From a plasmid: a stretch of DNA of 64,000 nt. Numbering within the stretch: position 1 is the first letter of the stretch; each line of letters starts with the position of its first letter. The translations under genes and the position numbers were made by a program. The stretch lies in sequence record CP132319.1, one strand, 5' to 3'. The notes under the pieces were generated by a model. It had not been told where the DNA came from. It searched no databases and saw only the letters and a list, made by a program, of their open reading frames with translations. Positions 22,093-62,198 of the stretch are shown here, piece after piece.

Positions 22093-22116
22093 CCTTCCAA
22101 CAGTGGGAAGGTCAAG
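22093..22116 (-). promoter_or_regulatory. MerR(CueR/HmrR)-type operator/promoter: -35 TTGACC plus dyad CCTTCCAACAGTGGGAAGG
   Basis: Near-perfect 7-bp dyad with TTGACC on the minus strand, 19-nt spacer geometry; upstream of the Cys-rich-MCO-ATPase operon. Confidence 0.6.
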
Positions 22117-22388
22117 AGGTTTTTTGAATATTGCGCTTTCATCCCCGTCTGGCCGCAGGGCACTCCGAGGTGATTTACCACTGTTCGGTTATAATTGGGG
22201 CGATCCTGCATCTATGACGCAGTTCGGTCATAAGCCTCTGCCAGCTAGCAATGGACGTGAACTCTTGGACAAGGTTTCCCCAGCGATGATGAGGTAGCAA
22301 GTCCAGCGTTTTTTCAACGGAATGGCAACCGCTATCGCACCGGTTTATTCAATCCACGACATACCTGAGCGTTGGCGCAGAGGCTTAA

Positions 22389-22952
22389 ATGGCAAAACAC
22401 ATCCCGAAAGTGAGCCACATGTCGCGATGTCTGGGGACTGTCGCTGTGCTTGTGCTCTGCGTCACGCTTGCTGAAGCCGCGGCCAACGTGGGCAGCGTTG
22501 TCGTCAATCGCCAGCGGGACATGAAGGAAATTGCGGTGGCGGCGAAAACCATTGCCGCGATGTTCAAGGCACCCGATACGTATTCGTCAGCTACCTTCGG
22601 AGAAGCGGCGAGCACGGTTAGCGAGCGGGCGGGTCAGCGATTGACCGATCATTTCGGCGTGATCGGAGCCGCAGAAGGGTCGAAAGTAACCGAGGCACTT
22701 ACGACCGATTATGATCGATTTGAAAAACTGGCTGCCGATCTCAAGGCCTATGCAGAGGTATTGGCCAAGGCTGCTGACGAACACCCGAATGCCATGACGG
22801 ACGATATGCGGATGAACGAGGGGGAGCTTATGGAAGGTGGCATTCTAGGTTCCCGGAAAAAGATCGATGCATCCGCGATGTCGGCGGAACATGCATTCCA
22901 TATGATGTTGCAGACCTGCACGTCGTGCCACTCGAAATTCCGCGCGAAGTAG
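22389..22952 (+). CDS. Cytochrome c' (class II, four-helix bundle, C-terminal CxxCH)
   Basis: Signal peptide; single heme motif CTSCH about 10 residues from the C-terminus; about 180 aa helical. Confidence 0.7.
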   Translation: MAKHIPKVSHMSRCLGTVAVLVLCVTLAEAAANVGSVVVNRQRDMKEIAVAAKTIAAMFKAPDTYSSATFGEAASTVSERAGQRLTDHFGVIGAAEGSKVTEALTTDYDRFEKLAADLKAYAEVLAKAADEHPNAMTDDMRMNEGELMEGGILGSRKKIDASAMSAEHAFHMMLQTCTSCHSKFRAK

Positions 22953-22998
22953 CGCGACTCCTTTGAGGAGCCGACAACCTTCATTCGGATGCCGGTCG

Positions 22999-23439
22999 TC
23001 AAATCGCGTGAACACCGAACTTGGCGTCGATTCCTGGAAGATCGTTGTCGGGGGCTTTGGCGATTTCGTCGATGATCGGACAGTCGGGCCGCTCGTCACC
23101 ATGGCAATTGTGCGCCAGGTGCTTGAGTGTTCTGGACATCGCCTGGATAGCCGCAGCCTTCCTCTCAAGCTCGGCAACATGTTCAAGCGCGATGGCTTTG
23201 ACATCCGCGCTACTGCGGGATTTATCGCGCCAGAGGGTGAGGAGGGTCTTCATCTGCTCAACTGAGAACCCCAGGTCCCGGGACCTGCGGATGAACTTCA
23301 GTGTGTGGATGTCGTTCTCGCTGTAGGTTCGATAGCTCGATTCCGTGCGGTGGGCAGGCGCGATGAGTTTGATCTGTTCGTAGTAGCGGATCATTTTGGA
23401 CGAGACGCCGCTCGCCTTGGACGCTTCTCCGATGTTCAT
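22999..23439 (-). CDS. hmrR: MerR-family Cu-responsive regulator (HmrR/CueR-like)
   Basis: N-terminal HTH MNIGEASKASGVSSKMIRYYE; C-terminal metal-binding Cys pair ...HNCHGDERPDCPII; immediately downstream of actP as in Rhizobium/Sinorhizobium. Confidence 0.8.
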   Translation of the reverse strand: MNIGEASKASGVSSKMIRYYEQIKLIAPAHRTESSYRTYSENDIHTLKFIRRSRDLGFSVEQMKTLLTLWRDKSRSSADVKAIALEHVAELERKAAAIQAMSRTLKHLAHNCHGDERPDCPIIDEIAKAPDNDLPGIDAKFGVHAI

Positions 23440-23485
23440 TTCTTGTCTCCCTATTGAGTAGGGCTGCCCATAGGACAGCCTATAA

Positions 23486-25963
<2,478 letters not shown>

Positions 25964-26001
25964 CGAAGGAATCCTTTTCCTAACTGCATAGATAGGTAAG
26001 G

Positions 26002-26024
26002 CTTCCAAAGATGGTAAGGTCAAG
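26002..26024 (-). promoter_or_regulatory. MerR(HmrR)-type promoter of actP: -35 TTGACC plus imperfect dyad CCTTACCATCTTTGGAAGCC
   Basis: Same architecture as the boxes at 22093 and 27041, but a degenerate dyad; about 40 nt upstream of the actP start. Confidence 0.5.
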
Positions 26025-26802
26025 CGTTTCTTTGGGGAAATCGGTCCCTTGGGAAAATGGGGCCGCTCCCGACCCGTTTGGACCGGTTCTGGATCAACCA
26101 ACTTCCTTGGACGTGATCGACATACTGTTCTCGCAATGTCCGGCGATCATTTGTCGGCTCGACTAGGCGTCTCGTGGTGAACTGAACGTTCCGTCACTAG
26201 CTCGAGGTTGGTTTCGTGCTGACGAGAGGGAGCGGAGTCCGCTCCTGAAGCAGAGGTCATCGTGTTCATCCTCAACGCTGCACGGCAAGACAGCGCCTTC
26301 ATGGGTGTGTAGCGAAACCTTAGCTTGTATTTTCCCTATCGGAAGGAGCGGTAATTTTTCCACAGTATTAAGCTAAATTTTTCATTAAATTTTAGCGAGG
26401 CGACATATGTGGCTTTTTGTGCCTATCGGCGCAGAAATTGAGAGCGGATTGAAGGGCTGAAACTACTCGCCGGTCTGCTTTACCGAGCATCTGACCACCA
26501 GAGCAGAACTCAGCTTGTAAATCAGGGCTACTGTAAAGGAGCACCGAGGCAGCAATTACAAAGTAGCGAGTGCATGCATACCGACCAACGTAGCGATCAT
26601 ACACGCTGCGATGAATCCTAGCACCGCCAGACACCGATTTGCCTTGCGGACAATGTTCGGCCGGGCCCGGCGTTTTGGACGCGGACGATGGGGCGGAATC
26701 AACTGGCCACCTTGCCGAAATTTTTTCTTACCGCCGGTCGTGGCAACGCCCTCGCGCCAGAATGAAGACGAGCTGCGGGGTTGGCGCAGCTCGTCCAATC
26801 GA

Positions 26803-27003
26803 TCACTTCGAGAGTGACGGCGTGTAACCCGCGTCAGTGATCGATGCGCTGATCACCTCCGTCGCAACACTGGTTTCTATCGTCACTGTCCTGGTGCCAA
26901 GATCGATTTTGGCGATGGCGTCGGGATCGACTGCCTTTATCGCCTTGTCGACTGAGCCCACACAGTGGCCGCACGTCATATCGGGAACATCGAACTTAAT
27001 CAT
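26803..27003 (-). CDS. copZ: CopZ-like HMA-domain copper chaperone
   Basis: MIKFDVPDMTCGHCVGSV metal-binding motif; 66 aa; RBS GGAGACCTCC. Confidence 0.85.
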   Translation of the reverse strand: MIKFDVPDMTCGHCVGSVDKAIKAVDPDAIAKIDLGTRTVTIETSVATEVISASITDAGYTPSLSK

Positions 27004-27040
27004 GGGAGGTCTCCAATTGCTTTGACTGACCGAATGTGGG

Positions 27041-27063
27041 GCTTCCAACAATGGGAAGGTCAA
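27041..27063 (-). promoter_or_regulatory. MerR(CueR/HmrR)-type operator/promoter: -35 TTGACC plus dyad CTTCCAACAATGGGAAGG, upstream of copZ
   Basis: Almost identical to the box at 22093; TTGACC on the minus strand. Confidence 0.6.
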
Positions 27064-27154
27064 GGGGGGCTGGAAAATTTCCGCGTTAGTCCGTCGCGCC
27101 TGTTCGTGTAATAGCCTACTTCACAGCGAACGTTCCCTGTGACAGAGTCGGCAT

Positions 27155-27517
27155 ATGGTTGTCATCGCGGCGCTCCGGCGCGTCCTTTTGCTGTTTGCTG
27201 TACTGGGGTTGCTGTTCGCCCCGGCCGCTATCGGCATGGCGATGGCCGCGATGAATCCCGATGCTGGCGCGCAGATGGAGATGGATGGCGACGCGGATAT
27301 GCCGTGCTGCCCAGACGAGCAACCGATCAAGAAGTTCGATTGCGGCAAACCATGCCCGCTGGCTTTGATATGCTCGACCAGTCTCGTCGTGAATTTCGGC
27401 TCCAATGCCGACTGGAAGGTTCTCGTCACCATGCGGAACCTGACGTTCTCGCTCCCCAGCGATAACGACCTCCTATCAACCTTCGCTGAACCACCCACTC
27501 GCCCGCCAAGGGCGTAA
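27155..27517 (+). CDS. Small membrane-anchored Cys-rich protein (member 4 of the paralog family)
   Basis: N-terminal TM; MPCCPDEQPIKKFDCGKPCPLALIC; C-terminal ...EPPTRPPRA. Confidence 0.5.
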   Translation: MVVIAALRRVLLLFAVLGLLFAPAAIGMAMAAMNPDAGAQMEMDGDADMPCCPDEQPIKKFDCGKPCPLALICSTSLVVNFGSNADWKVLVTMRNLTFSLPSDNDLLSTFAEPPTRPPRA

Positions 27518-27604
27518 TCTCACAGGCTTCCGTATGAGCAGGTTGCGATCTGCCTGAATGTGAACGCATGAGCGACGCTTGCTGCGTCCTCCGGTGAGAT
27601 ATCA

Positions 27605-28006
27605 ATGAAAAACATCCCACAAACTATGCGGCTGCTGACAGCTGTTCTTTTCGTGCCGCTTCTTCCTTACACCGTCTCGGCTGGCTCGGCGAACTATGAG
27701 TTCCATCTGGCTGAGACGTCAGTGGCCCAGGGTCCTGAGGCGGTGGTCACCGTTCTCATCAAAGATAAACGGTCCGGCAAACCCGTGTCAGATGCCGTAA
27801 TCTTCGCCACCCGCCTTGACATGGCCCCTGAGGGGATGGAGGCCATGACCACGACATTGGACCCGCTTCCCTCCGAAGAAGCTGGCGTCTATCGCTTCAA
27901 GGCCAACCTCTCCATGGAAGGAGGATGGCGATTTAAACTGGCCCTAAAGGTCCAAGGTGAATCAGAGACGGTCCAAGGCGAGCTGGTTCTGCAGGCAAAG
28001 CCATGA
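27605..28006 (+). CDS. Periplasmic protein of unknown function preceding cusB (possible metallochaperone)
   Basis: Signal peptide; 133 aa; ATGA overlap with the cusB start. Confidence 0.55.
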   Translation: MKNIPQTMRLLTAVLFVPLLPYTVSAGSANYEFHLAETSVAQGPEAVVTVLIKDKRSGKPVSDAVIFATRLDMAPEGMEAMTTTLDPLPSEEAGVYRFKANLSMEGGWRFKLALKVQGESETVQGELVLQAKP

Positions 28007-34300: not shown

Positions 34301-34311
34301 GTTTGCCTCCC

Positions 34312-34994: not shown

Positions 34995-35305
34995 AATATA
35001 GGGAAAAGCGCCCAGGATGGCAAGAATTTGGGGTCAGATGGCTAGTTTCCGATAAGGGTTACTTATCGGGGGTTAGACAACGGGGCACTTTTATGGCAGG
35101 TGTAGAACCCTAGTTGCCGTATAGCTTTCGCGTAGCAAATCGTTTACGATAAAAACAATGGCTTACGATCTCGCGAAATTGCCCATCTCCACCCTGCTGA
35201 AACCCGTTGCCGACGCCAGCTGTGGCTTTTAGCTCCCGATTTCAATTGAAGCGCCAAGCTAAAAAAGCGAGGGCCTGATTTTACCTAAGCTGTTCACGAA
35301 GGCCG

Positions 35306-35809
35306 TCAATTTGTAGGGAGCGATGAGGCACTTGGAGGGAGGTCGGCAGCATTGTCAGCAAGCGGATGCGCTTCGAGATCTGCGATCAGCGACTTCATTT
35401 CACCGATCTCCCGGACCTGAGCTTCGATGATCCCGTCAGCCAGCTTGCGCACCCGCGGATCTCTGATGTGCGCGCGTTCGCTGGTCATGATGGCGATGGA
35501 ATGATGGGGGATCATCGCCTTCATGTAGCTGACATCGTAGACGGTCTCCTGGCTGCGCACGAGCCAAAGGGACCCGGCAAAGACCAAAACGCTGACCGCG
35601 ACAATGACGGCATTGGCAGTCTTGTTCTTATACATTGACCACATGAAGCCGATCATGATGATCGCCATGACCGCGCCCATCAGTAGCGCCATCCACGTCC
35701 TGGTCTGGCTGTAGGTAACGTGATCGAGGGCATACGTATTCAGGTACATTAGACCAAACATGATCACCGTCGAGGTGACGATCATCGTGGCAAAGCGTCC
35801 ATAGGACAT
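35306..35809 (-). CDS. DUF305-family membrane-anchored protein
   Basis: Two N-terminal TM helices; DUF305 signature ...YMKAMIPHHSIAIMTSE (compare MIAHHMGAISMAE at 16912). Confidence 0.7.
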   Translation of the reverse strand: MSYGRFATMIVTSTVIMFGLMYLNTYALDHVTYSQTRTWMALLMGAVMAIIMIGFMWSMYKNKTANAVIVAVSVLVFAGSLWLVRSQETVYDVSYMKAMIPHHSIAIMTSERAHIRDPRVRKLADGIIEAQVREIGEMKSLIADLEAHPLADNAADLPPSASSLPTN

Positions 35810-35824
35810 GGGAATCTCCTTCCT

Positions 35825-36565
35825 CTACTTGATAAGCATCCAGACCGCCATCGCGACCATCATCAGGTTTTCAGTTAATGAGATGAAGCCTAAGGGGACA
35901 TTGCTGTCGCCGCCGACGCAGGCGCATTTCAGTTCACGGCGCTCAATGTAGACGGCCTTCAACACCGAAACGGCACCGATAGTCCCGATCACCAACGCGA
36001 CCGGGATAGCCAGCCACAACAGAAAGCCGGCGATCATCAGGATCCCGGCAAGCGCTTCCCCGAATGGATAGAGGTAGGCATAGCGGACCCAGCGCTGGGC
36101 CAGCAGGTCGTAGCCGAGGAACATGTTGGAGAAGCTCTCGACGTCCCGAAGCTTCAGGATCGCAAGTATACACATGGAAATCGCGATAAACCATTCTAAG
36201 GCACGAGCGGTTAGAACGTCGCTAAACGCCGCCCAACTGGCTGCGAGGGCCATCAGCGCGGCCATGGCAAACACCGCGATCACCGGCTGATAGGTGACAG
36301 CCTTTGGATCGCGAACGGTTTTGCCGAAATGACGAAGCAGATCGTCGTAGCCGCCGACCCGCTGCCCATCGATGAATGTCTGGGGTGTTGTCTCAACCTC
36401 GTGCTCGGCCTTGAAGGAATCGGTCTCTTCGCGGGTTTTCAGCCAGTTGTCGTCAACAGAGAAACCCTCGCGTTTCAGCAGATCGAGGGACTTCAAGCCA
36501 AACGGACAGATGTGGTCGGGCATGACCATCCGATAGATCGTCGCTCTGCGCGAATGAGCATTCAT
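35825..36565 (-). CDS. Glutaredoxin-domain / MauE(DoxX-like) membrane-domain fusion protein (thiol-disulfide oxidoreductase)
   Basis: N-terminal IYRMVMPDHICPFG thioredoxin-fold motif; C-terminal approximately 150 aa with four TM helices and ...CACVGG; overlaps the csoR stop. Confidence 0.65.
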   Translation of the reverse strand: MNAHSRRATIYRMVMPDHICPFGLKSLDLLKREGFSVDDNWLKTREETDSFKAEHEVETTPQTFIDGQRVGGYDDLLRHFGKTVRDPKAVTYQPVIAVFAMAALMALAASWAAFSDVLTARALEWFIAISMCILAILKLRDVESFSNMFLGYDLLAQRWVRYAYLYPFGEALAGILMIAGFLLWLAIPVALVIGTIGAVSVLKAVYIERRELKCACVGGDSNVPLGFISLTENLMMVAMAVWMLIK

Positions 36566-36584
36566 CCGATCACCTCTAATATCT

Positions 36585-36860
36585 CTAGCGCCTTGCGCGA
36601 TCGAACAGCTCGACGAGTTCGTCCAATTTCTGCTGTTGCTCACTCGCATCGCCGGACTTGATTGCATCCGCGACGCAGTGAGCCGCGTGATCACGAAGAA
36701 TCTCGCTCTCAGCTCGGCCGAGGGCTGCTTTCACTGCCTGGATCTGATGCAGGATGTCGATGCAATAGCGATCGTCAGACACCATTCGCGCCAAACCCTG
36801 GACCTGACCGGCAATCCGGTTTAACCGAACGATCTTGGCCCGCTTTCTGTCGCCGCACAT
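36585..36860 (-). CDS. csoR: CsoR/RcnR-family metal-sensing repressor
   Basis: 91 aa; ligand pattern ...YCIDILHQI... and ...HAAHC (Cys-His-Cys spacing typical of Cu(I)-CsoR). Confidence 0.75.
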   Translation of the reverse strand: MCGDRKRAKIVRLNRIAGQVQGLARMVSDDRYCIDILHQIQAVKAALGRAESEILRDHAAHCVADAIKSGDASEQQQKLDELVELFDRARR

Positions 36861-36992
36861 CGTTACCTCTCATACCCTAGGGGAGTATGTTCAACGATCG
36901 CGGTCCGCCATTGTTCCCTTACGACAGCGAAGACTTCGCCCGTACCGGCCCAAAGCGACGCCTAGGTTATGCAGTAAGGGCGAAAAGAGCGT

Positions 36993-38126
36993 TCAAAGCC
37001 CGGAGGCTTTGGTGAGGTTCACGCGGAAGCGATCACGCCGTCGCTGATAGCGTCGCGTCATCTCGGCCGAAGCATGGCCAAGCTGTTTCTGGACATAACG
37101 TTCGTCGACCTCGGCTGAAGAGGCGAGACCGGCGCGGAGGGAGTGACCGGAGAACTTGAAGGCGCGCTCGATCTCGCTGAGATTGCCGCGAACGCCGGCC
37201 GCCAGTGCGGTGCGCTTTACCAGCCGGGCGACCTCCTTGTCGTTCAGCCGCTCCGATCCGACAGCTTTCCCTTGCCCTGTCACGCGGCGAAAAAGGGGAC
37301 CGTGGGCCAGCCTGGCGAACTTGATCCACATCTCGATCGCGGCGACCGGGCAGGTCGCGTCAGACGAGCCGCGACCCACCTCAACCTCCCGCCATCCGGT
37401 TTTTCCGCGCAGGGTAACGAGCATCCCCTTGTCGAGGATTTCGATCCAGCCGCGCCCGTCTTCGGTCTGGTCTGCCTTCAGATCAAGGCCAACGATCTCG
37501 GAGCGGCGAAGACCACCGGCAAAGCCGACCAGCAACATGGCGCGGTCGCGCAGGCCGCGCAGCGAACCGCGGTCGAGCGTCTCGACCATGGCGATGATGT
37601 CTTCAGCCATGACCGCTTCCTTCTGCACCGGTGGCTTGGCATGGCTGTTGCGAATGCCAGCCATCACGGTGGCGATATGCCGGTCCTTGCGATCGAGCGA
37701 GAGGCCGCGCTGGGCATAGTTCCAGGAAAGCGAGGAGAGGCGTCGTTCGATGGTCGAGACGGAGTTCGCTTTCGCGCCCCGTTCAGCCGTGCCGGAAGCG
37801 CAGGCCGTAATATAAAGCCCTACAGTTTGCGGATGTGGGGGGAGGGGAGTGAGATTCGAGCGCCGGCACCAGGCTGAAAAATGCTTCCAATCGGCGGCAT
37901 AGGCTTTGCGCGTGTTGGCGGAACTGGCGGCTTCAACATAACCCCGGGCGCGATCAGCAAGGCTTGCAAGATGGGCGGGCGTCTGGTCCTGAATGGCGAG
38001 AGAGGGGAGGGGGCTATCGCCCGACACCCCCGGCGTGGAAACATCACGCTTCGGCGCCGTGCTGAGAGACGGCGCAGAGATCTCCTCGAAGTGATTTTCG
38101 GTTTTTTGCTCGATCATTTGGGCCAT
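36993..38126 (-). CDS. Tyrosine site-specific recombinase (phage integrase family; plasmid resolvase-like)
   Basis: C-terminal catalytic residues ...HSLRAGLA...LGHASAEMTRRY; 377 aa. Confidence 0.8.
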   Translation of the reverse strand: MAQMIEQKTENHFEEISAPSLSTAPKRDVSTPGVSGDSPLPSLAIQDQTPAHLASLADRARGYVEAASSANTRKAYAADWKHFSAWCRRSNLTPLPPHPQTVGLYITACASGTAERGAKANSVSTIERRLSSLSWNYAQRGLSLDRKDRHIATVMAGIRNSHAKPPVQKEAVMAEDIIAMVETLDRGSLRGLRDRAMLLVGFAGGLRRSEIVGLDLKADQTEDGRGWIEILDKGMLVTLRGKTGWREVEVGRGSSDATCPVAAIEMWIKFARLAHGPLFRRVTGQGKAVGSERLNDKEVARLVKRTALAAGVRGNLSEIERAFKFSGHSLRAGLASSAEVDERYVQKQLGHASAEMTRRYQRRRDRFRVNLTKASGL

Positions 38127-38233
38127 TTCTCTATTATGAGAAAAACATCCGATAATGCAAGATTATCGTTCGTTTTTATCTGTCGACGGGCGCGGCGGTT
38201 TATGCGCCAGATACTGGCTCAAAGCGCCGTCTT

Positions 38234-42982: not shown

Positions 42983-43390
42983 CTAATGCTTCGGCGAAAG
43001 AGAATCGATGATGCGGCAGTCGGCGACCGTTCCACAACTACACTGGTCGATAATACTGTCTAGTTCCGCCTTCAACGCCTGCAGGTCGCGGATCTTGCGC
43101 TCGACCTCGGCGCGATGCTCGTTGGCAATTTCGTCGACCGCCATGCATGACTGGTCACGGTCGTCACTCAGCCTCAGAAGACCGCGTACCTGATCGAGGG
43201 AAAATCCAAGGTCGCGCGCGCGACGGATGAAGCTCAGTCGATTCAGGTGCGCATGGTCATAGGCGCGGTAGTTGCCCTCGGTGCGGCCCGGTTCGGGCAG
43301 CAAACCGTTCTTTTCATAAAAGCGGATCGTTTCAACCTTGGTGCCGGTTTTCTTGGCAAGATACCCGATTGTCAGAATGTTTGGCGACAT
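42983..43390 (-). CDS. MerR-family Cd/Pb/Zn-responsive regulator (CadR/PbrR/ZntR-like)
   Basis: HTH LTIGYLAKKTGTKVETIRFYE; metal-binding Cys (C79-like ...DQSCMA and C-terminal CSCGTVADCRII); divergent from the P-type ATPase. Confidence 0.8.
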   Translation of the reverse strand: MSPNILTIGYLAKKTGTKVETIRFYEKNGLLPEPGRTEGNYRAYDHAHLNRLSFIRRARDLGFSLDQVRGLLRLSDDRDQSCMAVDEIANEHRAEVERKIRDLQALKAELDSIIDQCSCGTVADCRIIDSLSPKH

Positions 43391-43393
43391 GGC

Positions 43394-43424
43394 TTGACCC
43401 TGTAGTTGCTACAGGCCTCATGTA
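43394..43424 (+). promoter_or_regulatory. MerR(PbrR/CadR)-type promoter of the Zn/Cd/Pb ATPase gene: -35 TTGACC plus dyad CCTGTAGttgCTACAGG
   Basis: Perfect 7-bp dyad in the spacer; about 35 nt upstream of the ATPase start. Confidence 0.65.
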
Positions 43425-43456
43425 AGGCGCCAGTTCGTAATTGTCGAGGTGACGTC

Positions 43457-45592
43457 ATGGCTTCCAGCGCGTTGAAATTGAAGATCAAGGGCATGGATTG
43501 CGCTGCCTGCGCAATGAAGATTGAAAACGCGATGAAGCGCTTGCCAGGCGTCAGCGACATCAATGTCAATTACAGTCAGGAAAGCATGGTCATCATGCTG
43601 GATAAGGACAGGACCTCGCCGCAGACTGTCGAGGACAAGATCAAAGGGCTCGGCTTCACCCCAATTTCAGCGGGCGCGGACAATCAAGCTGGTGCCAGCC
43701 AGCTCCCGGACTACCACGACCAGGCATGGTGGAAGGGTAAGAAGGGGCGTCTCGTCATCTTCACTGGCGCGATGTTTGCAGTTGCCTGGAGCATCGCCCA
43801 CGTATCTCCGGACTGGGGTCAGATCGCTTACTCGGTAGCGGCGCTGATCGCCATCGTTCCGTTCGCAAGACGTGCCTTCGTCGGTGCTGTCTCCGGAACG
43901 CCGTTTAGCATCGAAACGCTGATGACGGTTGCCGCGCTCGGGGCGTTGCTGATTGGGGCCGCCGAGGAGTCGGCGGTCGTAATCCTGCTGTTTGCCGTTG
44001 GCGAGCTTCTCGAAACCATCGCGGCCGGCCGCGCCCGGGCTGGTATCAAGGCATTGATCGATCTTGTCCCAAGGACTGCCTTTCGCGAGCGCGATGGCGT
44101 GGTCGAGAAGGTTGCAGTAGAGGAACTGGCGATCGACGACATAGTCGTCGTGCGGCCCGGCGATCGTGTTCCCTCCGATGGCAAAGTCACGCAGGGCTTT
44201 TCCGAACTCAACGAGGCTCCGGTGACAGGTGAGTCCGTTCCGGTCGCCAAGAACGTCGGCGACAAGGTCTATGCCGGCAGCATCAACACCAATGGCGAGC
44301 TTCGGGTGGCGATCAGTCATGTCGCGGCCGACAATACAATCTCGCGCATCATTCATATGGTCGAGGAAGCGCAGTCGTCGAAGGCACCAATGGCACGGCT
44401 GATCGATCGCTTCAGCGCCTGGTATACGCCGGCGGCTATGGTGGTGGCGGCGCTGGTCATCGTCGTGCCGCCGATCTTCTTCGGCGGCGAGTGGGCGACG
44501 TGGATCTACCGTGGCCTCTCCACGCTCCTGATCGCCTGCCCCTGTGCGCTGGTCATCTCCACGCCGGCGGCCATAGCGTCCGGACTTGCGGCCGGCGCTC
44601 GCAAGGGTCTGCTTATCAAGGGCGGCGCGGCACTTGAGACGCTCGGAAAGGTCAAGACCGTCGCCTTCGACAAGACAGGAACGCTGACCCGCGGCCGACC
44701 GCAGGTCACGGATGTGTTGGCAATTGTCGGGACAGAGGCCGATGTGCTGGCCCGCGCGGCCGCCGTCGAACGGAACAGCAGCCATCCGCTAGGCGTCGCG
44801 ATTGGTGAAGCGGCGGTCGCAAAAGGCTTATCTGTGCCGGCAAGCTTCGGCGGTGCCAAGGCAACGCCCGGAAAAGCGGTTACTGCGCGGTTGAAGAACG
44901 GCTTCGTCTCCGTCGGGTCTCCCCGATTTGCCGCCGAGCAGGCCGTACTCGATGACGAATTTGCCCGGCGGATCACCTACCTTGAGGAAGAAGGAAAGAC
45001 GGTCGTCGTTCTGATGATGAACGGCAAGATTGAGGGCCTGATCGCGCTCAGGGACGAGCCGCGGGACGACGCCGCAACTGCCATCCGGCATCTGCAGGAT
45101 ATCGGCGTCAAAACTATCATGCTCACCGGCGACAATCAGCGCACGGCAATAGCGATAGGATCGGCGCTCGGACTGGACGTGAAGGCGGAACTACTTCCGG
45201 ACGCCAAGCTTGCCGAGATCTCGCGCCTCAAGACGCAAGCGCCCATCGCCATGATCGGCGACGGTATCAATGACGCTCCGGCGCTCGCCACCGCTTCGGT
45301 CGGGGTGGCAATGGGCGGAGGAACCGATGTCGCGCTGGAAACCGCCGACGCCGCGCTGCTTCGCGACAAGGTTATGGGAGTGGCCGATCTCATTGCCCTC
45401 TCAAAGGCGACGCTTGGCAACATCTGGCAAAATATCGGGCTCGCTCTTGGTCTCAAGGTCATTTTCCTCGGCACGACGCTTTTCGGTGTTACCACGCTTT
45501 GGATGGCGATTCTGGCTGATACGGGGGCGACGGTCCTGGTAACAGCCAATGCACTTCGCCTTCTTCGCCATCGCCGCCGTGATATCGAGTAG
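43457..45592 (+). CDS. Zn/Cd/Pb-translocating P1B-type ATPase (ZntA/CadA/PbrA-like)
   Basis: One HMA domain (GMDCAACAMKIE); CPC (ACPCALVISTP); DKTGTLT; [10 protein letters not shown]. Confidence 0.9.
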   Translation: MASSALKLKIKGMDCAACAMKIENAMKRLPGVSDINVNYSQESMVIMLDKDRTSPQTVEDKIKGLGFTPISAGADNQAGASQLPDYHDQAWWKGKKGRLVIFTGAMFAVAWSIAHVSPDWGQIAYSVAALIAIVPFARRAFVGAVSGTPFSIETLMTVAALGALLIGAAEESAVVILLFAVGELLETIAAGRARAGIKALIDLVPRTAFRERDGVVEKVAVEELAIDDIVVVRPGDRVPSDGKVTQGFSELNEAPVTGESVPVAKNVGDKVYAGSINTNGELRVAISHVAADNTISRIIHMVEEAQSSKAPMARLIDRFSAWYTPAAMVVAALVIVVPPIFFGGEWATWIYRGLSTLLIACPCALVISTPAAIASGLAAGARKGLLIKGGAALETLGKVKTVAFDKTGTLTRGRPQVTDVLAIVGTEADVLARAAAVERNSSHPLGVAIGEAAVAKGLSVPASFGGAKATPGKAVTARLKNGFVSVGSPRFAAEQAVLDDEFARRITYLEEEGKTVVVLMMNGKIEGLIALRDEPRDDAATAIRHLQDIGVKTIMLTGDNQRTAIAIGSALGLDVKAELLPDAKLAEISRLKTQAPIAMIGDGINDAPALATASVGVAMGGGTDVALETADAALLRDKVMGVADLIALSKATLGNIWQNIGLALGLKVIFLGTTLFGVTTLWMAILADTGATVLVTANALRLLRHRRRDIE

Positions 45593-52801: not shown

Positions 52802-53120
52802 GCACCTTCGGCCTGTTCTGTCCGTGTGCTCCAGCCGACCCGAGGACTGGCACAATGCCTTAGTCTTCCGACCGTGCGCGTCCCAGGCCGCCCAACGATA
52901 CGGCCGAGGAGACGAGCCGTTCTGCGTGACGCCGACGTGACATAGCCTCCAATCGTCGGCTGCCGGCGAGCCAGAAAGGGCCATGCACGGACCTTGCCGA
53001 AATCGGTAGGCAGCGGCACGCGAGGAAGTCTTCGGTATCCGCACGCCGGGCCACTTTTCAAACTCACCTCAAGATGTGCTCGAGCAGCCCGCAAGGCTGC
53101 GAGCCGAGGAGCTGAATACC

Positions 53121-54260: not shown

Positions 54261-54381
54261 TGCAACGTCGGGGCGGCGCTTCGCCGCCCCGCACGACCTA
54301 AGCCTCAAACCTATGAGCAGGACGGCCGGCATGCAGGCTTCATCAATGGACAAAGGGTCGGCGAGGCTCTATTCTTTGCCC

Positions 54382-54732
54382 ATGCTTCGCGCGTTGCTTA
54401 TCATTGTTACAACCATCTCGCTTGCCGCTGCTTCTTTTGCCGTTCAAGCACACGAGACCCGCATGTCCGGGATGTTGGAACGCGCCGCGCTGACGCAGCA
54501 CATGGAGCAAGCCTCTTCTTCGATGGCCGCTTGCAGCGAAGGGAAATCCTGCAAAGCAGATGCCGGATTGTGCACCTTCGCCTGCGCCGGAATATCGGCC
54601 TGGCTTCCGGTTGTGCGTACTTCGGCAAAGCAAATCAGCTCGCGGCAAAAATATCCCTTCCCGCCGGATGCCGTCTTCGTTGCGGCAGCTCCCGGCCGGA
54701 ATGATCGCCCTCCTATATCGCGCCTCCTCTGA
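54382..54732 (+). CDS. Small membrane-anchored Cys-rich protein (member 6 of the paralog family), directly upstream of a multicopper oxidase gene
   Basis: TM (LLIIVTTISLAAASFA); CSEGKSCKADAGLCTFACAG; C-terminal ...DRPPISRLL. The start could also be the upstream Met at 54331 or 54346. Confidence 0.5.
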   Translation: MLRALLIIVTTISLAAASFAVQAHETRMSGMLERAALTQHMEQASSSMAACSEGKSCKADAGLCTFACAGISAWLPVVRTSAKQISSRQKYPFPPDAVFVAAAPGRNDRPPISRLL

Positions 54733-54807
54733 GCCTGCGGCGGGGCTGATCCCGCTGCGATCCATTTGGACCTTTCAGGCGGGACAGATCGTCCCGAGGT
54801 GACGAAT

Positions 54808-56292: not shown

Positions 56293-56723
56293 AACCGCTC
56301 TGGATCGCGGTCGCCGCAACTCTCCTGGCGGCGGCCGGTGCGATCTTGGTCGGAAAGGGACGGTCCGGTCAGGAGGCGAGCGATCGCATCGCCCTTGGCC
56401 GGGCAGTCTATCTAGCGAACTGTGCGAGCTGTCACGGCACGAAACTCGAAGGCCAGCCCGACTGGCGCAGCCCGGGCACGAGCGGCCGCCTTCCGGCGCC
56501 GCCGCATGACAAGACCGGTCACACCTGGCATCATTCGGACAGGCAGCTCCTCGCAATCATCACCGATGGGACCGCCGCGGTGGTTGGCGGTGGCTACGAG
56601 AGTGACATGCCCAGCTTTCGGGAGGCTCTGACCTCCGCCGAGATCGAGGCTGTCCTCGACTACATCAAGAGTACCTGGCCGCAACGAGAGGCAGACTACC
56701 AACGCCGCATCTCGAACGGCTGA
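56289..56723 (+). CDS. Class I c-type cytochrome (single CxxCH), translationally coupled to the MCO gene
   Basis: TM/signal then CASCHG; ATGA overlap with the MCO stop. Confidence 0.75.
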   Translation: MKPLWIAVAATLLAAAGAILVGKGRSGQEASDRIALGRAVYLANCASCHGTKLEGQPDWRSPGTSGRLPAPPHDKTGHTWHHSDRQLLAIITDGTAAVVGGGYESDMPSFREALTSAEIEAVLDYIKSTWPQREADYQRRISNG

Positions 56724-56864
56724 CACGCCGGAGGCCACGAAAACAATTTCGTGGCCCCACATCGCCATCGCGCGCCGCCCCACCACCACATTCATGCCGA
56801 CGGGTTCGGCAGTTGATGGCGGCAGAGAGGGTGTTCGGCGGCCTAAAGACATAAGGATTCACAA

Positions 56865-57296
56865 ATGAACAAGAGAAACGTCTTCGCTCTGCTCGTCGCC
56901 GCGGCAGCGGTTGCGGGCTTTGCGCTTTGGAATCGAACCGGATCGGAAGACGAAGCCAGAAGAGGAGTATCGGGCCAGGGGACGGCATTGTCGGTTGTCG
57001 TGCCTTCGTCATTGTCCGACACCGCAAAGATGGGAGAACGAGCTTTCAACGCCGTCTGTGCAGCGTGCCACGGCAAGAACGCGGCCGGAACCGATGCCGG
57101 CCCGCCGCTCATCCATCGGATATACGAACCTTCTCACCACGGAGACTACGCCTTTGAAATGGCCGTCGCCAACGGCGTGCGCGCGCATCACTGGAAATTC
57201 GGAAACATGCCTCCTCAGCCGGGTCTGACGAGGGCCGACGTCGCTACGATCGTGGCCTATGTGCGCGAGCTTCAGCGGGCGAACGGCATCAATTGA
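56865..57296 (+). CDS. Class I c-type cytochrome (single CxxCH)
   Basis: Signal peptide; CAACHG heme motif; distal Met in ...GNMPPQPG. Confidence 0.75.
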   Translation: MNKRNVFALLVAAAAVAGFALWNRTGSEDEARRGVSGQGTALSVVVPSSLSDTAKMGERAFNAVCAACHGKNAAGTDAGPPLIHRIYEPSHHGDYAFEMAVANGVRAHHWKFGNMPPQPGLTRADVATIVAYVRELQRANGIN

Positions 57297-57421
57297 GGAG
57301 CATTGGCGGCGAGATACCCTGCCAGACCTGTCGAGGCGGGTTTGAGGAAATCGGGCGGCTGCGAGTGGAGTTGTGGTGTGATAGGATGAGGCGGCCAAGT
57401 CGCCTATGGGAGGGGTGTGCA

Positions 57422-57790
57422 ATGCGAACTGGCATAACATGCGCATTTGTCGTTCTGGCTTTGCTGGTGTCGGCGTCAAATGCCCAAGAGGATCAGCCGT
57501 TTCATACGTCTTATTTCGCGGATGAAACGACCATCAGCCTGTCCGTGACCGTCGCGGCAACCTCTCTTGACCCGGAATATAATTTCGATGTGCAAGTCGC
57601 GCTCACGGAGCGCGGACCCGAGGGTCAGATCAGATTCATCGACCACAGCGCCCACCTTGCAAAGGTACGATGCGCCGCGCCGAAGGCCGTCATGATCGGC
57701 CAATCAGAGTTTATGCTGTCGGATTCGCCCGAGCCGGGGGATTGGAAGCAGGATCTCTGGCGCACCTTCTGCCTCCTGCCGGTCTCATGA
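57422..57790 (+). CDS. Small secreted protein of unknown function; paralog of 9057..9428
   Basis: Signal LALLVSASNAQ; shares ...QPFH..(E/Y)F.D...ISL...........(D/E)..F..DV.V.LTE..P.GQ......HLA.VRC.AP.AV..G..........P...DWK.DLW.T.C..PVS with the 9057 ORF. Confidence 0.6.
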   Translation: MRTGITCAFVVLALLVSASNAQEDQPFHTSYFADETTISLSVTVAATSLDPEYNFDVQVALTERGPEGQIRFIDHSAHLAKVRCAAPKAVMIGQSEFMLSDSPEPGDWKQDLWRTFCLLPVS

Positions 57791-57796
57791 GGAACG

Positions 57797-57822
57797 GGGC
57801 CGCGCTGCATCCAGCGCGGCCC
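57797..57822. terminator. Hairpin GGGCCGCGCTG-catc-CAGCGCGGCCC between convergent genes (candidate bidirectional terminator)
   Basis: 11-bp perfect stem read in the sequence. Confidence 0.45.
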
Positions 57823-57828
57823 TGTGCT

Positions 57829-58113
57829 TCACTTGACCTGGGTGACAGTCAGCTTTCCGTTGACGCGCTCGGCAACGAACTGGACCTTTGCGCCGACCTT
57901 GAGCTTTTCCAGCATCGCGTCATCAGCGACCTGGAATACCATCGTCATGGCCGGCATCTCGAGGTTCTTCAGCTCTTCATGGATGAGCGTGACCTTCTTC
58001 GCCTTCTCGTCCAGCTTCTTGACCGTGCCGCTGGTGAATTCCTGCGCGAAGGCGGCGGTGCCGAAGGCGAAGGCGACGGCGCCGGCGAGTGTGATTCTTG
58101 TGATAGCTTTCAT
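57829..58113 (-). CDS. cusF: CusF-like periplasmic Cu(I)-binding protein (second copy)
   Basis: Near-identical to 9520..9804 (…MPAMTMVFQVAD…KLTVTQVK). Confidence 0.8.
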   Translation of the reverse strand: MKAITRITLAGAVAFAFGTAAFAQEFTSGTVKKLDEKAKKVTLIHEELKNLEMPAMTMVFQVADDAMLEKLKVGAKVQFVAERVNGKLTVTQVK

Positions 58114-58131
58114 CGTCATTTCTGTTGCTCC

Positions 58132-58608
58132 TTATTTCTTCGCGACCGTGACGTCGCCGTGCATGCCGGAATCGTAGTGACCGGGAACGAGGCAGGCGAT
58201 CTTGAACACGCCGTCGTTGGTGAACTTCCAGACGATCTCGCCGGATTTTCCGGGCGCGAGGCGAATGGCGTTCGGATCCTCGTGTTCCATTTCCGGGAAT
58301 TTCTCCATCACGGCTTTGTGCTCCATGATCTTGTCTTCCTGGTCGAGCACGAATTCATGATCGACCTCGCCCGCATTCTTGATCGCGAAGCGAACGGTCT
58401 GGCCCTGGCGGACCTTGAAGGTGCTTGGTGTGAAGATCATCTTGCCGTCATCCGTTTCCTTCATCGTGACACGGATGGTCTGGGACGCCTTGGCCTTTTC
58501 ACCGGGTTCGCCAACGGCCATTTCGCCATGACCGCCCTCATGCGAACCGGATGCAAAAGCAGCGGTGGCAAACGTTGAGAGTAGCAGACCAACTAGAATG
58601 CGTTTCAT
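58132..58608 (-). CDS. Secreted cupredoxin (second copy)
   Basis: Homolog of 9822..10298 with the same C..H..M type-1 copper ligands. Confidence 0.8.
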   Translation of the reverse strand: MKRILVGLLLSTFATAAFASGSHEGGHGEMAVGEPGEKAKASQTIRVTMKETDDGKMIFTPSTFKVRQGQTVRFAIKNAGEVDHEFVLDQEDKIMEHKAVMEKFPEMEHEDPNAIRLAPGKSGEIVWKFTNDGVFKIACLVPGHYDSGMHGDVTVAKK

Positions 58609-58639
58609 AATCGTTTCCTTTATCGTTTCTGGGAGGAAG

Positions 58640-59962
58640 TTAACCGTGATTGGAATGGCCAGACGGAAGTTGTGTCTTGGCATCTTTCGCTTTGACAGGC
58701 TCGGGCAAGCTCCCGGTCCATTCCCACGCCTGCGTGCCGGGAGGGTTCTCGTACCAACCCGGATCGCTGTAGTCGTCCGCTGAGATACCCTCGCGGACCT
58801 TCACCACGGAGAACATGCCGCCCATTTCGATCGGGCCGTGGGGACCCCACCCGGTCATCATGGGGACGGTGTTCTCCGGTATTTCCATCGACATTTCGCC
58901 CATATCCGCCATGCCGGCCGTCCCCATGGGCATGTATTCGGGACGGATCTGCCTGATCTTTTTTGCAACCTCCTTCTTGTCGACCCCGATGAATGTCGGG
59001 ATCTCGTGACCCATGGCATTCATGGTGTGATGCGACTTGTGGCAATGGATCGCCCAGTCGCCGACGTACTTCGCGTCGAACTCGTAGGCGCGCATCGCAC
59101 CGACAGGGATGTCGATGCTGACCTCGGGCCAGCGCGCCTCCGGCCTGACCCAGCCGCCATCGGTGCAGGTCACCTCGAAATCGTAGCCGTGCATGTGGAT
59201 TGGATGGTTCGTCATCGTCAGGTTACCGACGCGAACACGAACCCTGTCGTTCTTGGAAACGACGAGCGGATCGATCCCTGGAAAGACGCGCGTGTTGAAC
59301 GTCCAGAGGTTGAAGTCGGTCATTTCCATGATCCGGGGCACGTATGTTCCCGGATCGATGTCATAGGCGCTGAGCAGGAAGACGAAATCCCGATCCACCG
59401 GCATGAACTTCGGGTCCCGGGGATGGATGACGAAGAAGCCCATCATCCCCATCGCCATCTGTACCATCTCGTCCGAGTGCGGGTGGTACATGAAGGTGCC
59501 GGATTTCACGAGATCGAACTCGTAAACGAAGGTCTTGCCAGAGGGGATGTGAGGCTGCGACAGCCCGCCAAGACCATCCATCCCCGACGGCAGGATCATA
59601 CCGTGCCAATGAATGGTCGTGTGCTCCGGCAGCTTGTTGGTCACGAAAATGCGAACCCGGTCGCCTTCGACTGCTTCGATGGTCGGACCCGGTGACTGGC
59701 CGTTGTACCCCCAAAGATATGCGGTCATGCCTTCGGCCATCTCCCGCTCCACCGGCTCGGCAACGAGGTGGAATTCCTTCACCCCGTTGTTCATTCGGAA
59801 CGGCAAGGTCCAACCGTTGAGGGTGACGACCGGATTGTAATCTGGGCCGACCGTCGGCTTTACCGGGGTTTGCGTGGCCGCCGAGTCCATGAGAGCGGCT
59901 TCCGGCAAGCCCATGTTGGACGTTTGCGCCCAGGTCTTACGATAACGCTGCAATGGTGGCAA
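58640..59962 (-). CDS. Multicopper oxidase, second copy of the 452-aa type, with its N-terminal Tat signal replaced by unrelated sequence (probably non-exported and non-functional)
   Basis: Homology to 10328..11686 begins at ...W(A/G)QTSNMGLPEA; upstream of it the reading frame encodes MPPLQRYRKT instead of the Tat signal; the junction lies at about 59945, next to parDE. Confidence 0.7.
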   Translation of the reverse strand: MPPLQRYRKTWAQTSNMGLPEAALMDSAATQTPVKPTVGPDYNPVVTLNGWTLPFRMNNGVKEFHLVAEPVEREMAEGMTAYLWGYNGQSPGPTIEAVEGDRVRIFVTNKLPEHTTIHWHGMILPSGMDGLGGLSQPHIPSGKTFVYEFDLVKSGTFMYHPHSDEMVQMAMGMMGFFVIHPRDPKFMPVDRDFVFLLSAYDIDPGTYVPRIMEMTDFNLWTFNTRVFPGIDPLVVSKNDRVRVRVGNLTMTNHPIHMHGYDFEVTCTDGGWVRPEARWPEVSIDIPVGAMRAYEFDAKYVGDWAIHCHKSHHTMNAMGHEIPTFIGVDKKEVAKKIRQIRPEYMPMGTAGMADMGEMSMEIPENTVPMMTGWGPHGPIEMGGMFSVVKVREGISADDYSDPGWYENPPGTQAWEWTGSLPEPVKAKDAKTQLPSGHSNHG

Positions 59963-60012
59963 CTAAACCACATATGTGCTAATGTGGGTCCGTCACTTCG
60001 GGAGTATGTGAA

Positions 60013-60264
60013 ATGAGCCGCTTGACGATCGACATAACGGACAAACAACATCAAAGCCTCAAAGCGCTAGCCGCTCTGCAGGGCAAGACAATCAAGCAGT
60101 ACGCACTTGAGCGCCTGTTTCCTGGCGACGTCGAGGGAGAACTGGCCTGGGAAGAGTTAAAGACGTTGATGAATACGCGCATCAGTGAGGGGCTCGCCGG
60201 AAAACTGTCGACCAAAACCGTAGGTGAGATCCTCGACGAGGAGATCGCCGAAGGTCGCGCTTGA
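60013..60264 (+). CDS. parD: ParD-family RHH antitoxin
   Basis: 83 aa; MSRLTIDITDKQHQSLKALAALQGKTIKQYALERL; overlaps parE. Confidence 0.75.
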   Translation: MSRLTIDITDKQHQSLKALAALQGKTIKQYALERLFPGDVEGELAWEELKTLMNTRISEGLAGKLSTKTVGEILDEEIAEGRA

Positions 60265-60563
60265 CGGCTTACATCCTGACCGCAGAGGCAGAATCCGATC
60301 TTCGCTCGGTAATCCGTTACACACGGACACAATGGAGTGCCGCCCAGGTACGTCACTACGTCTCGGCTTTGGAGCGAGGAATGGAGGACATTGCCGCGGG
60401 CAAAGTTCCCTTCAAGGATCTGAGCGCACTCTATCCGGCGCTGCGGATGGCGCGATGCCAGCACCACTACTTCTTCTGTCTGCCTCGAGAACATGCGCCC
60501 GCTCTCATCGTAGCGATTCTTCACGAACGAATGGATCTCATGAGGCGTTGGCTGACCGTCTAA
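60261..60563 (+). CDS. parE: ParE/RelE-family toxin
   Basis: 100 aa; ...ILTAEAESDLRSVIRYT...HYFFCLPR...ILHERMDL; 4-nt overlap with parD. Confidence 0.75.
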   Translation: MTAYILTAEAESDLRSVIRYTRTQWSAAQVRHYVSALERGMEDIAAGKVPFKDLSALYPALRMARCQHHYFFCLPREHAPALIVAILHERMDLMRRWLTV

Positions 60564-60713
60564 ACGAGTGATGTTTTCACGACGGGAGGAACTCCTGCGC
60601 GCGTGCTAGATAAGCCCTTGTCTTCGAGCGATCAAAAAGGTGTCGTCGGTTCGGATCCCTTCAAGAGCAGCGAATCTGACGCTTCGAGTGGCGTGATGAG
60701 ATTTTTTAAGAGA

Positions 60714-61973
60714 TTACCCGATGGCAAATGGCTCGAAACGCAAGGGCATGCCCCGTTCTAGGGTTACGAGCTCCGGTGGCAGGATTGCCAGACCGTCGGC
60801 ATGGGCCATGGGCAACAGGCTTCCCGACGATCCGCGGCCCAGCATTGCAAGCAGGGGAGTGCCAGAAGCGTCGCGACTCTGAAGGCGGACGGCGACGAAT
60901 TCCGTTCGGCCCTCCTTCTTGCGCAACCCAAAGTCGGAGATCGCCGGCATCCAGACGGGATCCAAACGCTCGATCCCGGCCACAGCCCTGATCGCCGGCA
61001 GCGCAATCTTGTCAAGTGTCACGGCGGCGGCCATGGGATTCCCAGGAAGCCCGATAAAGAGCGCCGACCCCAGCGTGCCGAAGGAAACCGGCTTACCCGG
61101 CCGCATGGCGACATCAAGCACGCCGAGCGACCCGCCGCTGCGTGTTAGCGCGTCCCGCACATGATCCTCGCCACCCTTGGACATCCCGCCTGACGTCACG
61201 ACGATATCGTGCTCCGTAGCAGCGCTGTGAATGATATCGGTGGTCGCCTCAATCGTGTCCGGCGTCGCCCCGAGATCGCGGACTTCAAGCCAGGGATGCG
61301 ACAGCATGGAGGCGAGAAGGTAGCGGTTGGAATTGTAGATCTGGCCAGCTGCCAGGTGCTCACCCGGCTCTTTCAGTTCAGAGCCTGTTGTGATGAACCC
61401 GAGTCGGATCTTTCAAACGATGGAAATCCGAGACAAGCCTGCGGCCGCGAGCAGCGCAATCCGGTGTGCTGTCAGAACCGTCCCGGCCTTGAACAGCAGA
61501 GAGTTTTGGTCGACGTCTTCGCCCGCCCTGCGGATGTTCTCGCCTGGGCGGGGCCGGTAGGCGGTGGTGAACTCGCGATCGTGCCGCGAGCATTTTTCAC
61601 GGATGATCACGGCGTCGAAACCGGCCGGGATCATCGCGCCGGTGAAGATTTCCACGGCCTCAGCACTTTCGAAACTGCGGCTGCTGGCCTGATCTCCGGC
61701 TGCCACTCTGTCTGCGACCAGAAAGGTCCAGGGACCACTGCCGGAAAAATCTGCCGAGCGGACCGCAAACCCATCCATCGCCGAATGATCAAAGCGCGGC
61801 AAGGCACAGGGCGAGCGGATGTCGGCGGCCACAACTCTTCCCGCAGCAGAGAACAGTTCTAGATTTTCGCTGGCGGTCACGGGCCGACAGAGGCTGATGG
61901 CGCGGCTCACCGCATCGGCAACCGACAGCATGGGGCGAGCAGCGTAGGCTGGCCCGCAGTCGAGAGAGTCCAA
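60714..61973 (-). pseudogene. moeA: Molybdopterin molybdotransferase gene interrupted by an in-frame TGA at 61413-61415 (otherwise an intact approximately 410-codon reading frame)
   Basis: The N-terminal part (…LSVADAVSRAIS…PRFDHSAMDGFAV…RISIV*) and C-terminal part (KIRLGFITTGSELKEPGEHLAAGQIYNSNRYLLASMLS…TSGGMSKGGEDH…) are in the same frame, separated only by TGA. Confidence 0.7.
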
Positions 61974-62176
61974 CTGGACCGAGGTAGAGCGTGACGAGGA
62001 TGAAGCCCCACTTCATCACGGCCGGTTCTGGATTGTTCCTGAATTGATCCCAGGCAACATATGCCGTGCTCAAGCCTGAAAGGACGAACCAGATGAAAAG
62101 CAGGTAGTCGATGGGCTGAATAAACACAGTGCACTCCATGTCCGTGAGAATCATGACATGGAGCGCACCGTACCGA

Positions 62177-62198
62177 TTCCTAGTGTTGGAAGGTCAAG
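62177..62198 (-). promoter_or_regulatory. Degenerate fourth copy of the HmrR/CueR-type box (TTGACC plus TTCCAACACTAGGAA)
   Basis: GATTCCTAGTGTTGGAAGGTCAAG on the plus strand; compare GCTTCCAACAATGGGAAGGTCAAG at 27041. Confidence 0.35.

Follow-up and report, generated by a model that had tools for sequence, protein, structure and literature searches.

Four predicted CueR/HmrR-type promoter-operators among the copper genes of a rhizobial metal-resistance plasmid

Introduction

The mechanism of Escherichia coli CueR, and of the MerR class of regulators, is established, and it is the basis for the mechanism that we propose here for a plasmid-borne copper system. The operators of such systems have been catalogued by Permina et al. 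(2006; PMC1526738), who gave the CueR signal as ACCTTCCC-(5)-TGGAAGGT and the HmrR signal as ACCTTCCAG-(3)-CTGGAAGG, the latter attributed in that paper to Reeve et al. (2002), and who had by then extended the predicted copper regulons to multicopper oxidases, copper chaperones and cytochromes. Their table lists for actP on Sinorhizobium meliloti pSymA the site ACCTTaCC-(5)-TGGAAGGa within TTGACc-(19)-TATctg at −61; the paper of Cubillas et al. (2017; PMC5552934) on rhizobial Cu-ATPases gives no regulatory context. The order of actP followed by hmrR, found in S. meliloti pSymA and Rhizobium leguminosarum, is also that of the DNA studied here, a stretch of 64,000 nucleotides (nt) from plasmid record CP132319.1, which we call the window. 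We concluded from its sequence that four sites in the window are very probably promoters of the MerR class, with a TTGACC −35 hexamer and a weak −10 hexamer set too far apart, at 19 bp, and with the CueR/HmrR dyad ACCTTCC-N7-GGAAGGT in this over-long spacer.

Results

An original prediction, made from the letters of the window, had proposed a recurrent HmrR/CueR-type operator at four positions, and all four sites are present: site 1 at 22093-22115 (plus-strand sequence CCTTCCAACAGTGGGAAGGTCAA), site 2 at 26001-26023 (GCTTCCAAAGATGGTAAGGTCAA), site 3 at 27041-27063 (GCTTCCAACAATGGGAAGGTCAA), and site 4 at 62175-62197 (GATTCCTAGTGTTGGAAGGTCAA). On the minus strand all four read TTGACC-TTCC-N7-GGAAG, so that each is a leftward promoter in form. 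Two details of the sequence as first described needed correction, as the TTGACC that was said to be followed by CCTTCC belongs to the minus strand and runs into the palindrome arm, reading TTGACCTTCC, and the left arm at 27041, given as CCTTCC, is actually GCTTCC. The operator type was correctly named, since the sites carry the published CueR/HmrR signal and the 19-bp spacer. To call the regulon dispersed was an overstatement; a stretch of 5 kb contains three of the four, all in one orientation.

The first predicted promoter-operator (22085..22115, minus strand) has TTGACC at 22115-22110, CTTCC-CACTGTT-GGAAG within the 19-bp spacer, and the −10 hexamer CAGGAT at 22090-22085; from the start of its −35 hexamer it is 118 nt to the ATG at 21997 of an open reading frame (ORF) for a Cys-rich protein, which is followed by genes for a multicopper oxidase (MCO) and a Cu-ATPase. 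The second (25993..26023, minus strand) has TTGACC at 26023-26018, a 19-bp spacer with CTTAC-CATCTTT-GGAAG, and TACCTA at 25998-25993, and it stands 60 nt before the actP ATG at 25963, ahead of actP-cueR. The third (27033..27063, minus strand), with TTGACC at 27063-27058, a 19-bp spacer with CTTCC-CATTGTT-GGAAG and CACATT at 27038-27033, stands at the same distance, 60 nt, before the copZ ATG at 27003. The fourth and weak one (62167..62197, minus strand), with TTGACC at 62197-62192, a 19-bp spacer with CTTCC-AACACTA-GGAAT and TACGGT at 62172-62167, is 70 nt from the GTG at 62127 of a DUF4396 gene remnant. In each case the start codon is on the same strand as the promoter, and the four target assignments of the original prediction (the Cys-rich/MCO/Cu-ATPase operon, copZ, actP, and a remnant next to moeA) were all right; it had also seen the MCO-ATPase operon and actP as separately wired, and each does have a box of its own. 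All four sites take the form TTGACC-(19)-[C/T]Annn[T/A], the −10 hexamers being weak but having A at position 2, a base worth 2.2 bits in the matrix of foreign sites described below. Relative to the 16 specified bases of TTGACCTTCC-N7-GGAAGG there were no mismatches at 22115, one at 27063, and two each at 26023 and 62197.

When the window was searched for CTTCC-N7-GGAAGGTCAA with at most one mismatch, there were 4 matches, whereas dinucleotide shuffles gave an expectation of 0.02 and none of 100 shuffles reached 4. Relaxing the pattern to three mismatches added only the mirror images of the two best palindromes. Enrichment was confined to N7; in the window, the alternative dyad spacings N4-N6 and N8-N10 were at background level. 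A standard sigma-70 promoter scan missed all four sites because it allows spacers of 16-18 bp and these have 19 bp.

For comparison we used 80 foreign loci encoding CueR relatives (57-92% identical), and 96 unique boxes from these loci gave a position weight matrix (PWM). With it the actP site scored 45.6 bits, the copZ site 45.5 bits, the Cys-rich/MCO/ATPase site 34.2 bits, and the remnant site 16.7 bits, relative to a maximum of 9.7 bits in the shuffled window. The sites at 26002 and 62177 had both been described as degenerate. This is true of 62177, which is weak at 16.7 bits; the actP site at 26002 is not degenerate, because by the foreign-locus PWM it equals 27041 and exceeds 22093, and because its TTACC arm is the one listed for S. 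meliloti pSymA actP. A whole-replicon PWM scan, which had been suggested with the original prediction and for which our PWM was built from foreign boxes, found only the four sites in the whole plasmid of about 119 kb (the window plus the rest of the Shinella plasmid described below), and nothing above 8 bits in the remaining plasmid (L095, L096, and the transposon segment of L001).

The operator consensus was common to all 80 cueR loci examined. In nearly all of them a box lies about 2.6 kb upstream of cueR, ahead of actP, and in many there is another box, of the GGAAGCCCCACAT type, like that of the window's copZ promoter; this type recurs upstream of copZ in many foreign loci. The gene downstream of the oriented boxes (n=110) encoded an ActP-like ATPase in 67 cases, CopZ in 18, and CueR in 7. 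For the actP promoter, the 31-nt core in 27 relatives was 81% identical to that of the window and the adjacent upstream 40 nt 53%, the boxes having been gathered by consensus. These comparisons bear on the idea that the four motif copies are duplicated or recombined promoter cassettes with no present regulatory function, as might be suspected in an island that is a mosaic, with a deletion between copZ and actP, breakpoints associated with insertion sequences (IS), and duplicated pco-like clusters. We consider this very improbable, since the flanks of the four boxes are mutually unrelated, each box is of the type found at the orthologous promoters of distant genomes, and geometry and orientation to the start codons are right in all four.

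The gene cueR/hmrR (22999..23439, minus strand), which encodes a regulator of the MerR family that senses Cu(I), follows actP after 46 nt; the original prediction had rightly placed it downstream of actP. Its product scored 182 bits on the equivalog model TIGR02044 (cut-off 147.4), matched Pfam MerR, MerR_1 and MerR-DNA-bind, and shared 71% identity with S. meliloti HmrR1; among solved structures the best relative is E. coli CueR (1q05; also the CueR entries 6xh7, 6ldi, and 7c17). The monovalent-metal site is kept, RSSADVK and CHGDERPDC of the plasmid protein aligning with RHSADVK and CPGDDSADC of the E. coli protein, so that the equivalent of Ser77 (the Ser that excludes divalent ions), the C-x7-C loop, and the equivalents of Cys112 and Cys120 are all retained. 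By these sequence features the regulator is CueR/HmrR, and it is the only CueR-type gene on the plasmid. That narrower statement replaces the earlier claim of a single MerR regulator gene, because there is a second MerR-family gene at 43390..42983.

The second regulator (42983..43390, minus strand) is CadR/ZntR-like, with Cys in the place of Ser77 and the loop CSCGTVADC. The gene is divergent from that for a ZntA-like P-type ATPase (43457..45592), and the 66-bp intergenic region between them contains a MerR-class promoter of its own at 43396-43431, TTGACC-CTGTAG-TTG-CTACAGG, with the dyad CCTGTAG-TTG-CTACAGG. Replacement of the Cu(I)-sensor Ser by Cys marks a divalent-metal sensor, and from its sequence the protein is probably a sensor of Zn, Cd, or Pb. 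A CueR search of the sister-plasmid record (NZ_CP132308.1) gave two places at E<=1e-20, which were taken as cueR and this gene. As a member of the same family that scores 129 bits on the CueR model, the second protein might be thought to bind the four sites itself; it falls below every equivalog cut-off, however, has Cys for Ser, and has a different dyad of its own at the ZntA-like ATPase promoter, and we find its binding to the four sites scarcely credible.

The four boxes might also be real CueR operators that are shared with CueR paralogues of the host, on the chromosome or on other plasmids, so that the regulon would belong to a host network and not to a self-contained plasmid circuit. The operator consensus shared by all 80 cueR loci is consistent with this, as are the cueR homologues on 820 plasmid records, 21 of them Shinella, and an 89% identical cueR on a 574-kb contig of a Shinella metagenome-assembled genome (L004). 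Host CueR paralogues are plausible, and we regard such sharing as possible, though somewhat doubtful; it is compatible with CueR-dependent promoters at the four sites and would merely qualify the phrase "the single regulator."

The predicted operon behind site 1 consists of three cistrons on the minus strand. Cistron 1 (21647..21997) encodes a Cys-rich secreted protein of 116 amino acids with a signal peptide ending in SHA, a conserved CC-x3-C-x2-C motif, and a C-terminal PSPGxEPPRS. Cistron 2 (20110..21573) encodes an MCO with a Tat signal, identified by Pfam Cu-oxidase, Cu-oxidase_2 and Cu-oxidase_3 and by RefSeq annotation; its TAT_signal match was weak, below the Pfam cut-off. Cistron 3 (17878..20097) encodes a Cu(I)-type P1B ATPase, identified by Pfam and NCBIfam TIGR01511, whose N-terminus is His-rich and which has an HMBD domain and the motifs CPC, DKTGT, YN, and MxxSS. 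The Cys-rich ORF had no Pfam or NCBIfam match and was absent from the RefSeq gene table used, and a word-based homologue search with it returned nothing. An annotated ORF of Rhizobium sp. Khangiran2 that occupies the same position shares 33% identity with it (E=2e-12), and an exhaustive HMMER search found a small family of 20 representative clusters at E<=0.001. Sixteen of these clusters, with proteins of 103-121 amino acids, were aligned with the window ORF; all 17 sequences had a signal peptide, C35, CC64-65, and C69 were invariant and C72 nearly so, and the C-terminus read G-x-x-PSPG-x-EPPRS. By this conservation the small ORF is a real gene of a secreted family that has no Pfam or NCBIfam model. 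A homologous module, about 75% identical, occurs on plasmids of Agrobacterium tumefaciens CFBP6625, Rhizobium sp. Khangiran2 and Rhizobium sp. X9, where a box again lies at the corresponding position, about 540 nt ahead of the MCO gene, with a homologous small ORF after it.

Several observations weigh against reading all four sites as CueR promoters of the genes behind them. In those three relatives the module's box has an N6 dyad centre and an 18-bp spacer, CTTGACCTTCCCAC-GTTGGAAGCACCAGCAT (at 8272-8294 in L090 and at homologous positions in L093 and L094), and no box was found upstream of the MCO-module homologues on R. leguminosarum pSK01 and one S. meliloti plasmid; from these boxless homologues and the N6 relatives it follows that CueR wiring of the MCO module recurs but is not universal. 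Site 4 (62197) has two mismatches, both in the right arm, in addition to its low score. Terminator predictions gave none on the minus strand, the terminator-like matches being all on the plus strand and at background frequency, and thus operon boundaries are assumed from gene spacing only. Finally, the training sites of the PWM were collected with the consensus itself, so that the core positions are not independent, whereas the centre, the −10 region, and the flanks are.

Site 4 stands before a remnant of about 54 codons (61966..62127, minus strand, GTG start at 62127), the N-terminus of a membrane protein whose complete form has about 209 amino acids, and the remnant is directly followed by moeA/glp for a molybdopterin molybdotransferase (60714..61931, minus strand). 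The start of the remnant ORF, (M)FIQPIDYLLFIWFVLSGLSTAYVAWDQFRNNPEPAVMKWGFILVTLYLGPVG, is the N-terminus of a highly conserved 209-amino-acid membrane protein whose later part is a DUF4396 domain, and homology ends at about 61967, some 35 nt before the moeA ATG. The remnant itself had no Pfam match, because the PF14342 domain begins past the breakpoint. A longer homologue, P0038, covers the first 23 positions of the PF14342 profile (E=0.0015, below the gathering score), and in L087 the product that immediately continues a remnant homologue carries PF14342. Full-length 209-amino-acid homologues were 83-100% identical to the query derived from L087, and full-length genes occurred in 80 metagenome loci, the protein being 83-91% identical across many of these. 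We rejected the remnant ORF (121 amino acids as listed) as a complete small gene; its database homologues are mostly fragments from assembly or rearrangement, and the intact protein has 209 amino acids.

Among the 80 metagenome loci (L098-L177), 18 have an oriented CueR-type box upstream of the DUF4396 gene, nine of them at 93-120 nt, six at about 350-380 nt (the copZ-promoter type), and three further upstream; boxes in these loci numbered 20, relative to about 1 expected by shuffling. In Mesorhizobium amorphae (L085/L086) a perfect box lies ahead of a MerR/cytochrome c'/DUF4396/MCO string. We found no paper that describes the 209-amino-acid DUF4396 protein as a member of a copper regulon. The boxes upstream of DUF4396 genes often have a GGCAAGG-arm variant, and the gene is commonly next to genes for cytochrome c' and MCO.

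Two metagenome contigs, L083 (4930-5432) and L084, are otherwise identical here and have, about 10 nt past the window's breakpoint and in the place of moeA, an IS21-family element, assigned by its IstA-like ORF and multiple terminal repeats. The position of this element suggests a rearrangement associated with an IS. The moeA gene of the window has a premature TGA at 61415-61413 (R173*, CGA to TGA), where NZ_CP132308.1 has CGA and an intact gene for 405 amino acids. Site 4 could in principle be a captured promoter that puts moeA under copper control and so links copper stress to synthesis of the molybdenum cofactor (Moco). The end of remnant homology about 35 nt before the moeA ATG and on the same strand, which leaves no space in which moeA could have a native promoter, would suit such a capture, as would a site 4 score above that of every shuffle, the intact moeA of the sister plasmid, and the precedent of a CueR effect reported for the E. 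coli moa genes (Yamamoto and Ishihama 2005, as cited in PMC2408646). However, the premature TGA leaves no evident selection on moeA in the window, the right arm of site 4 is degenerate, the moeA ATG has no obvious Shine-Dalgarno sequence, and the arrangement of remnant and moeA occurs only in near-identical plasmids, L083 and L084 having the IS21 element instead. We therefore judge capture of moeA by site 4 to be improbable, and give an equally small chance to an IS-associated rearrangement having made the insertion of molybdenum into molybdopterin copper-inducible in sister plasmids with an intact moeA. Most likely, as read from the sequence, site 4 is the stranded native promoter of the truncated DUF4396 gene, a decaying relic.

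The genes behind sites 2 and 3 are familiar ones. The product of actP/copA (23486..25963, minus strand) is a P1B-1 ATPase for Cu(I) export that has a CPC motif and, at its N-terminus, two HMA domains, and that of copZ (26803..27003, minus strand) is a copper chaperone of 66 amino acids, identified by Pfam HMA and annotation. The unannotated gap between copZ and the actP promoter (26024-26802) is what is left of an acyltransferase gene after a deletion of about 1.24 kb; plasmid NZ_CP084755.1 has this gene whole, with copZ on one side and actP on the other (L097, 9250..10509). ORFs in this gap were accordingly not accepted as genes, since it is the remainder of the deleted acyltransferase gene.

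Between box 1 and cueR lies a plus-strand cytochrome c' gene (22389-22952) that has no box of its own and only a lone TATAAT at 22190-22195. Box 1 was considered as a divergent promoter for this gene (22389..22952) too and was rejected as such, as its plus-strand reading has no −35-like hexamer and the score of 14.0 bits only reflects the palindrome read in mirror image. There are other genomes in which the gene for cytochrome c' comes immediately after a CueR box and ahead of DUF4396/MCO.

The window has near-identical relatives in Shinella sumterensis plasmid unnamed6 (NZ_CP132308.1, 119 kb, repABC) and in a plasmid of "Roseateles sp. XES5." Positions 1-35265 and 41546-64000 are collinear with NZ_CP132308.1 at an identity above 99.8%, and the intervening transposon segment differs. 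The sole long stretch without a match in the Shinella record is 35265-38150, in place of which NZ_CP132308.1 has a transposon segment with a site-specific integrase, a Mu-type transposase, TniB, and a recombinase. The plasmid is a rhizobial metal-resistance mosaic with genes for copper, zinc/cadmium, and arsenic. Most copper genes of the window had no CueR box by the PWM scan, namely two pco-like clusters, a cus-like RND system, and another MCO/cytochrome cluster; these genes lie near a CopRS-like two-component system and probably answer to that system or to other regulators. The two pco-like clusters (9519-11622 and 57827-59934), neither with a CueR box, are about 82% identical to each other and contain genes for a copper oxidase, a plastocyanin/azurin-like protein, and a copper-binding protein; the CopRS-like system is at 14489..16517.

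Discussion

We propose that a CueR dimer, made from the cueR gene at the end of the actP operon, would sit on each dyad and, without copper, would keep the promoter in an inactive conformation. Binding of Cu(I), or else of Ag(I) or Au(I), to the Cys-x7-Cys loop would then untwist the dimer and kink the spacer, allowing RNA polymerase to use the −35 and −10 hexamers together. A rise in cytoplasmic Cu(I) would in this way turn on actP-cueR, giving both the efflux pump and positive autoregulation of the sensor; it would turn on copZ and so supply the chaperone; and, by read-through from site 1, it would turn on the secreted Cys-rich protein, the Tat-exported MCO for periplasmic oxidation of Cu(I), and the second Cu(I)-ATPase for efflux. 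What the sequence shows is the sites with their geometry and conservation, and which regulator the gene encodes; binding and copper response we infer from the established CueR/MerR mechanism, and read-through we infer as well. The fourth box would be the native promoter of a DUF4396 gene, which a rearrangement would have cut after about 54 codons, placing the stump directly upstream of moeA.

For annotation, the sites indicate which copper genes are predicted to respond to cytoplasmic Cu(I) through CueR, namely actP-cueR, copZ, and the Cys-rich/MCO/ATPase operon; knowledge of CueR itself is unchanged. For curators of regulons, it may be of use that in many genomes CueR-type boxes precede genes for DUF4396 membrane proteins, and that the MCO-ATPase operon of this plasmid and of three relatives begins with a gene of a small secreted Cys-rich family that lacks a Pfam model. 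If moeA had, against our expectation, been captured, it would be a plasmid-borne analogue of the CueR effect on moa in E. coli and might compensate for the poisoning of the Moco pathway by copper.

The CueR/HmrR system of the window is textbook and already catalogued for close relatives; it is not new. It is like the E. coli CueR regulon (PcopA and PcueO) in that a single MerR activator senses Cu(I), efflux ATPase and MCO genes each have their own promoter, the spacer is 19 bp long, and the dyad is CCTTCC/GGAAGG, whereas in E. coli cueR is not downstream of copA and there is no separate copZ gene, and in the window the MCO gene is in a predicted operon with those for a second ATPase and a small Cys-rich protein. 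Monovalent-metal sensors of the GolS/gold type, as in Salmonella, have a nearly identical operator architecture and the same metal site; GolS-type operators differ at inner dyad positions. Arms of the GGCAAGG type were found in some foreign loci, whereas all four window sites have GGAAG or GGAAT arms and the regulator passes the CueR equivalog model. Promoters of the CadR/PbrR/ZntR type are alike in being of the MerR class with a TTGACC −35 hexamer and a long spacer, and the one such unit in the window (43396-43431) differs from the CueR sites in its CTGTAG/CTACAG dyad, its Cys-for-Ser sensor, and its ZntA-like ATPase target. There is also a close likeness to S. meliloti pSymA, where the actP site has the same TTACC arm and its −35 hexamer is at −61, relative to −60 in the window. 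For pSymA the catalogue lists only actP-hmrR, whereas the window plasmid has further boxes at copZ, at the Cys-rich/MCO/second-ATPase operon, and at the DUF4396 stump.

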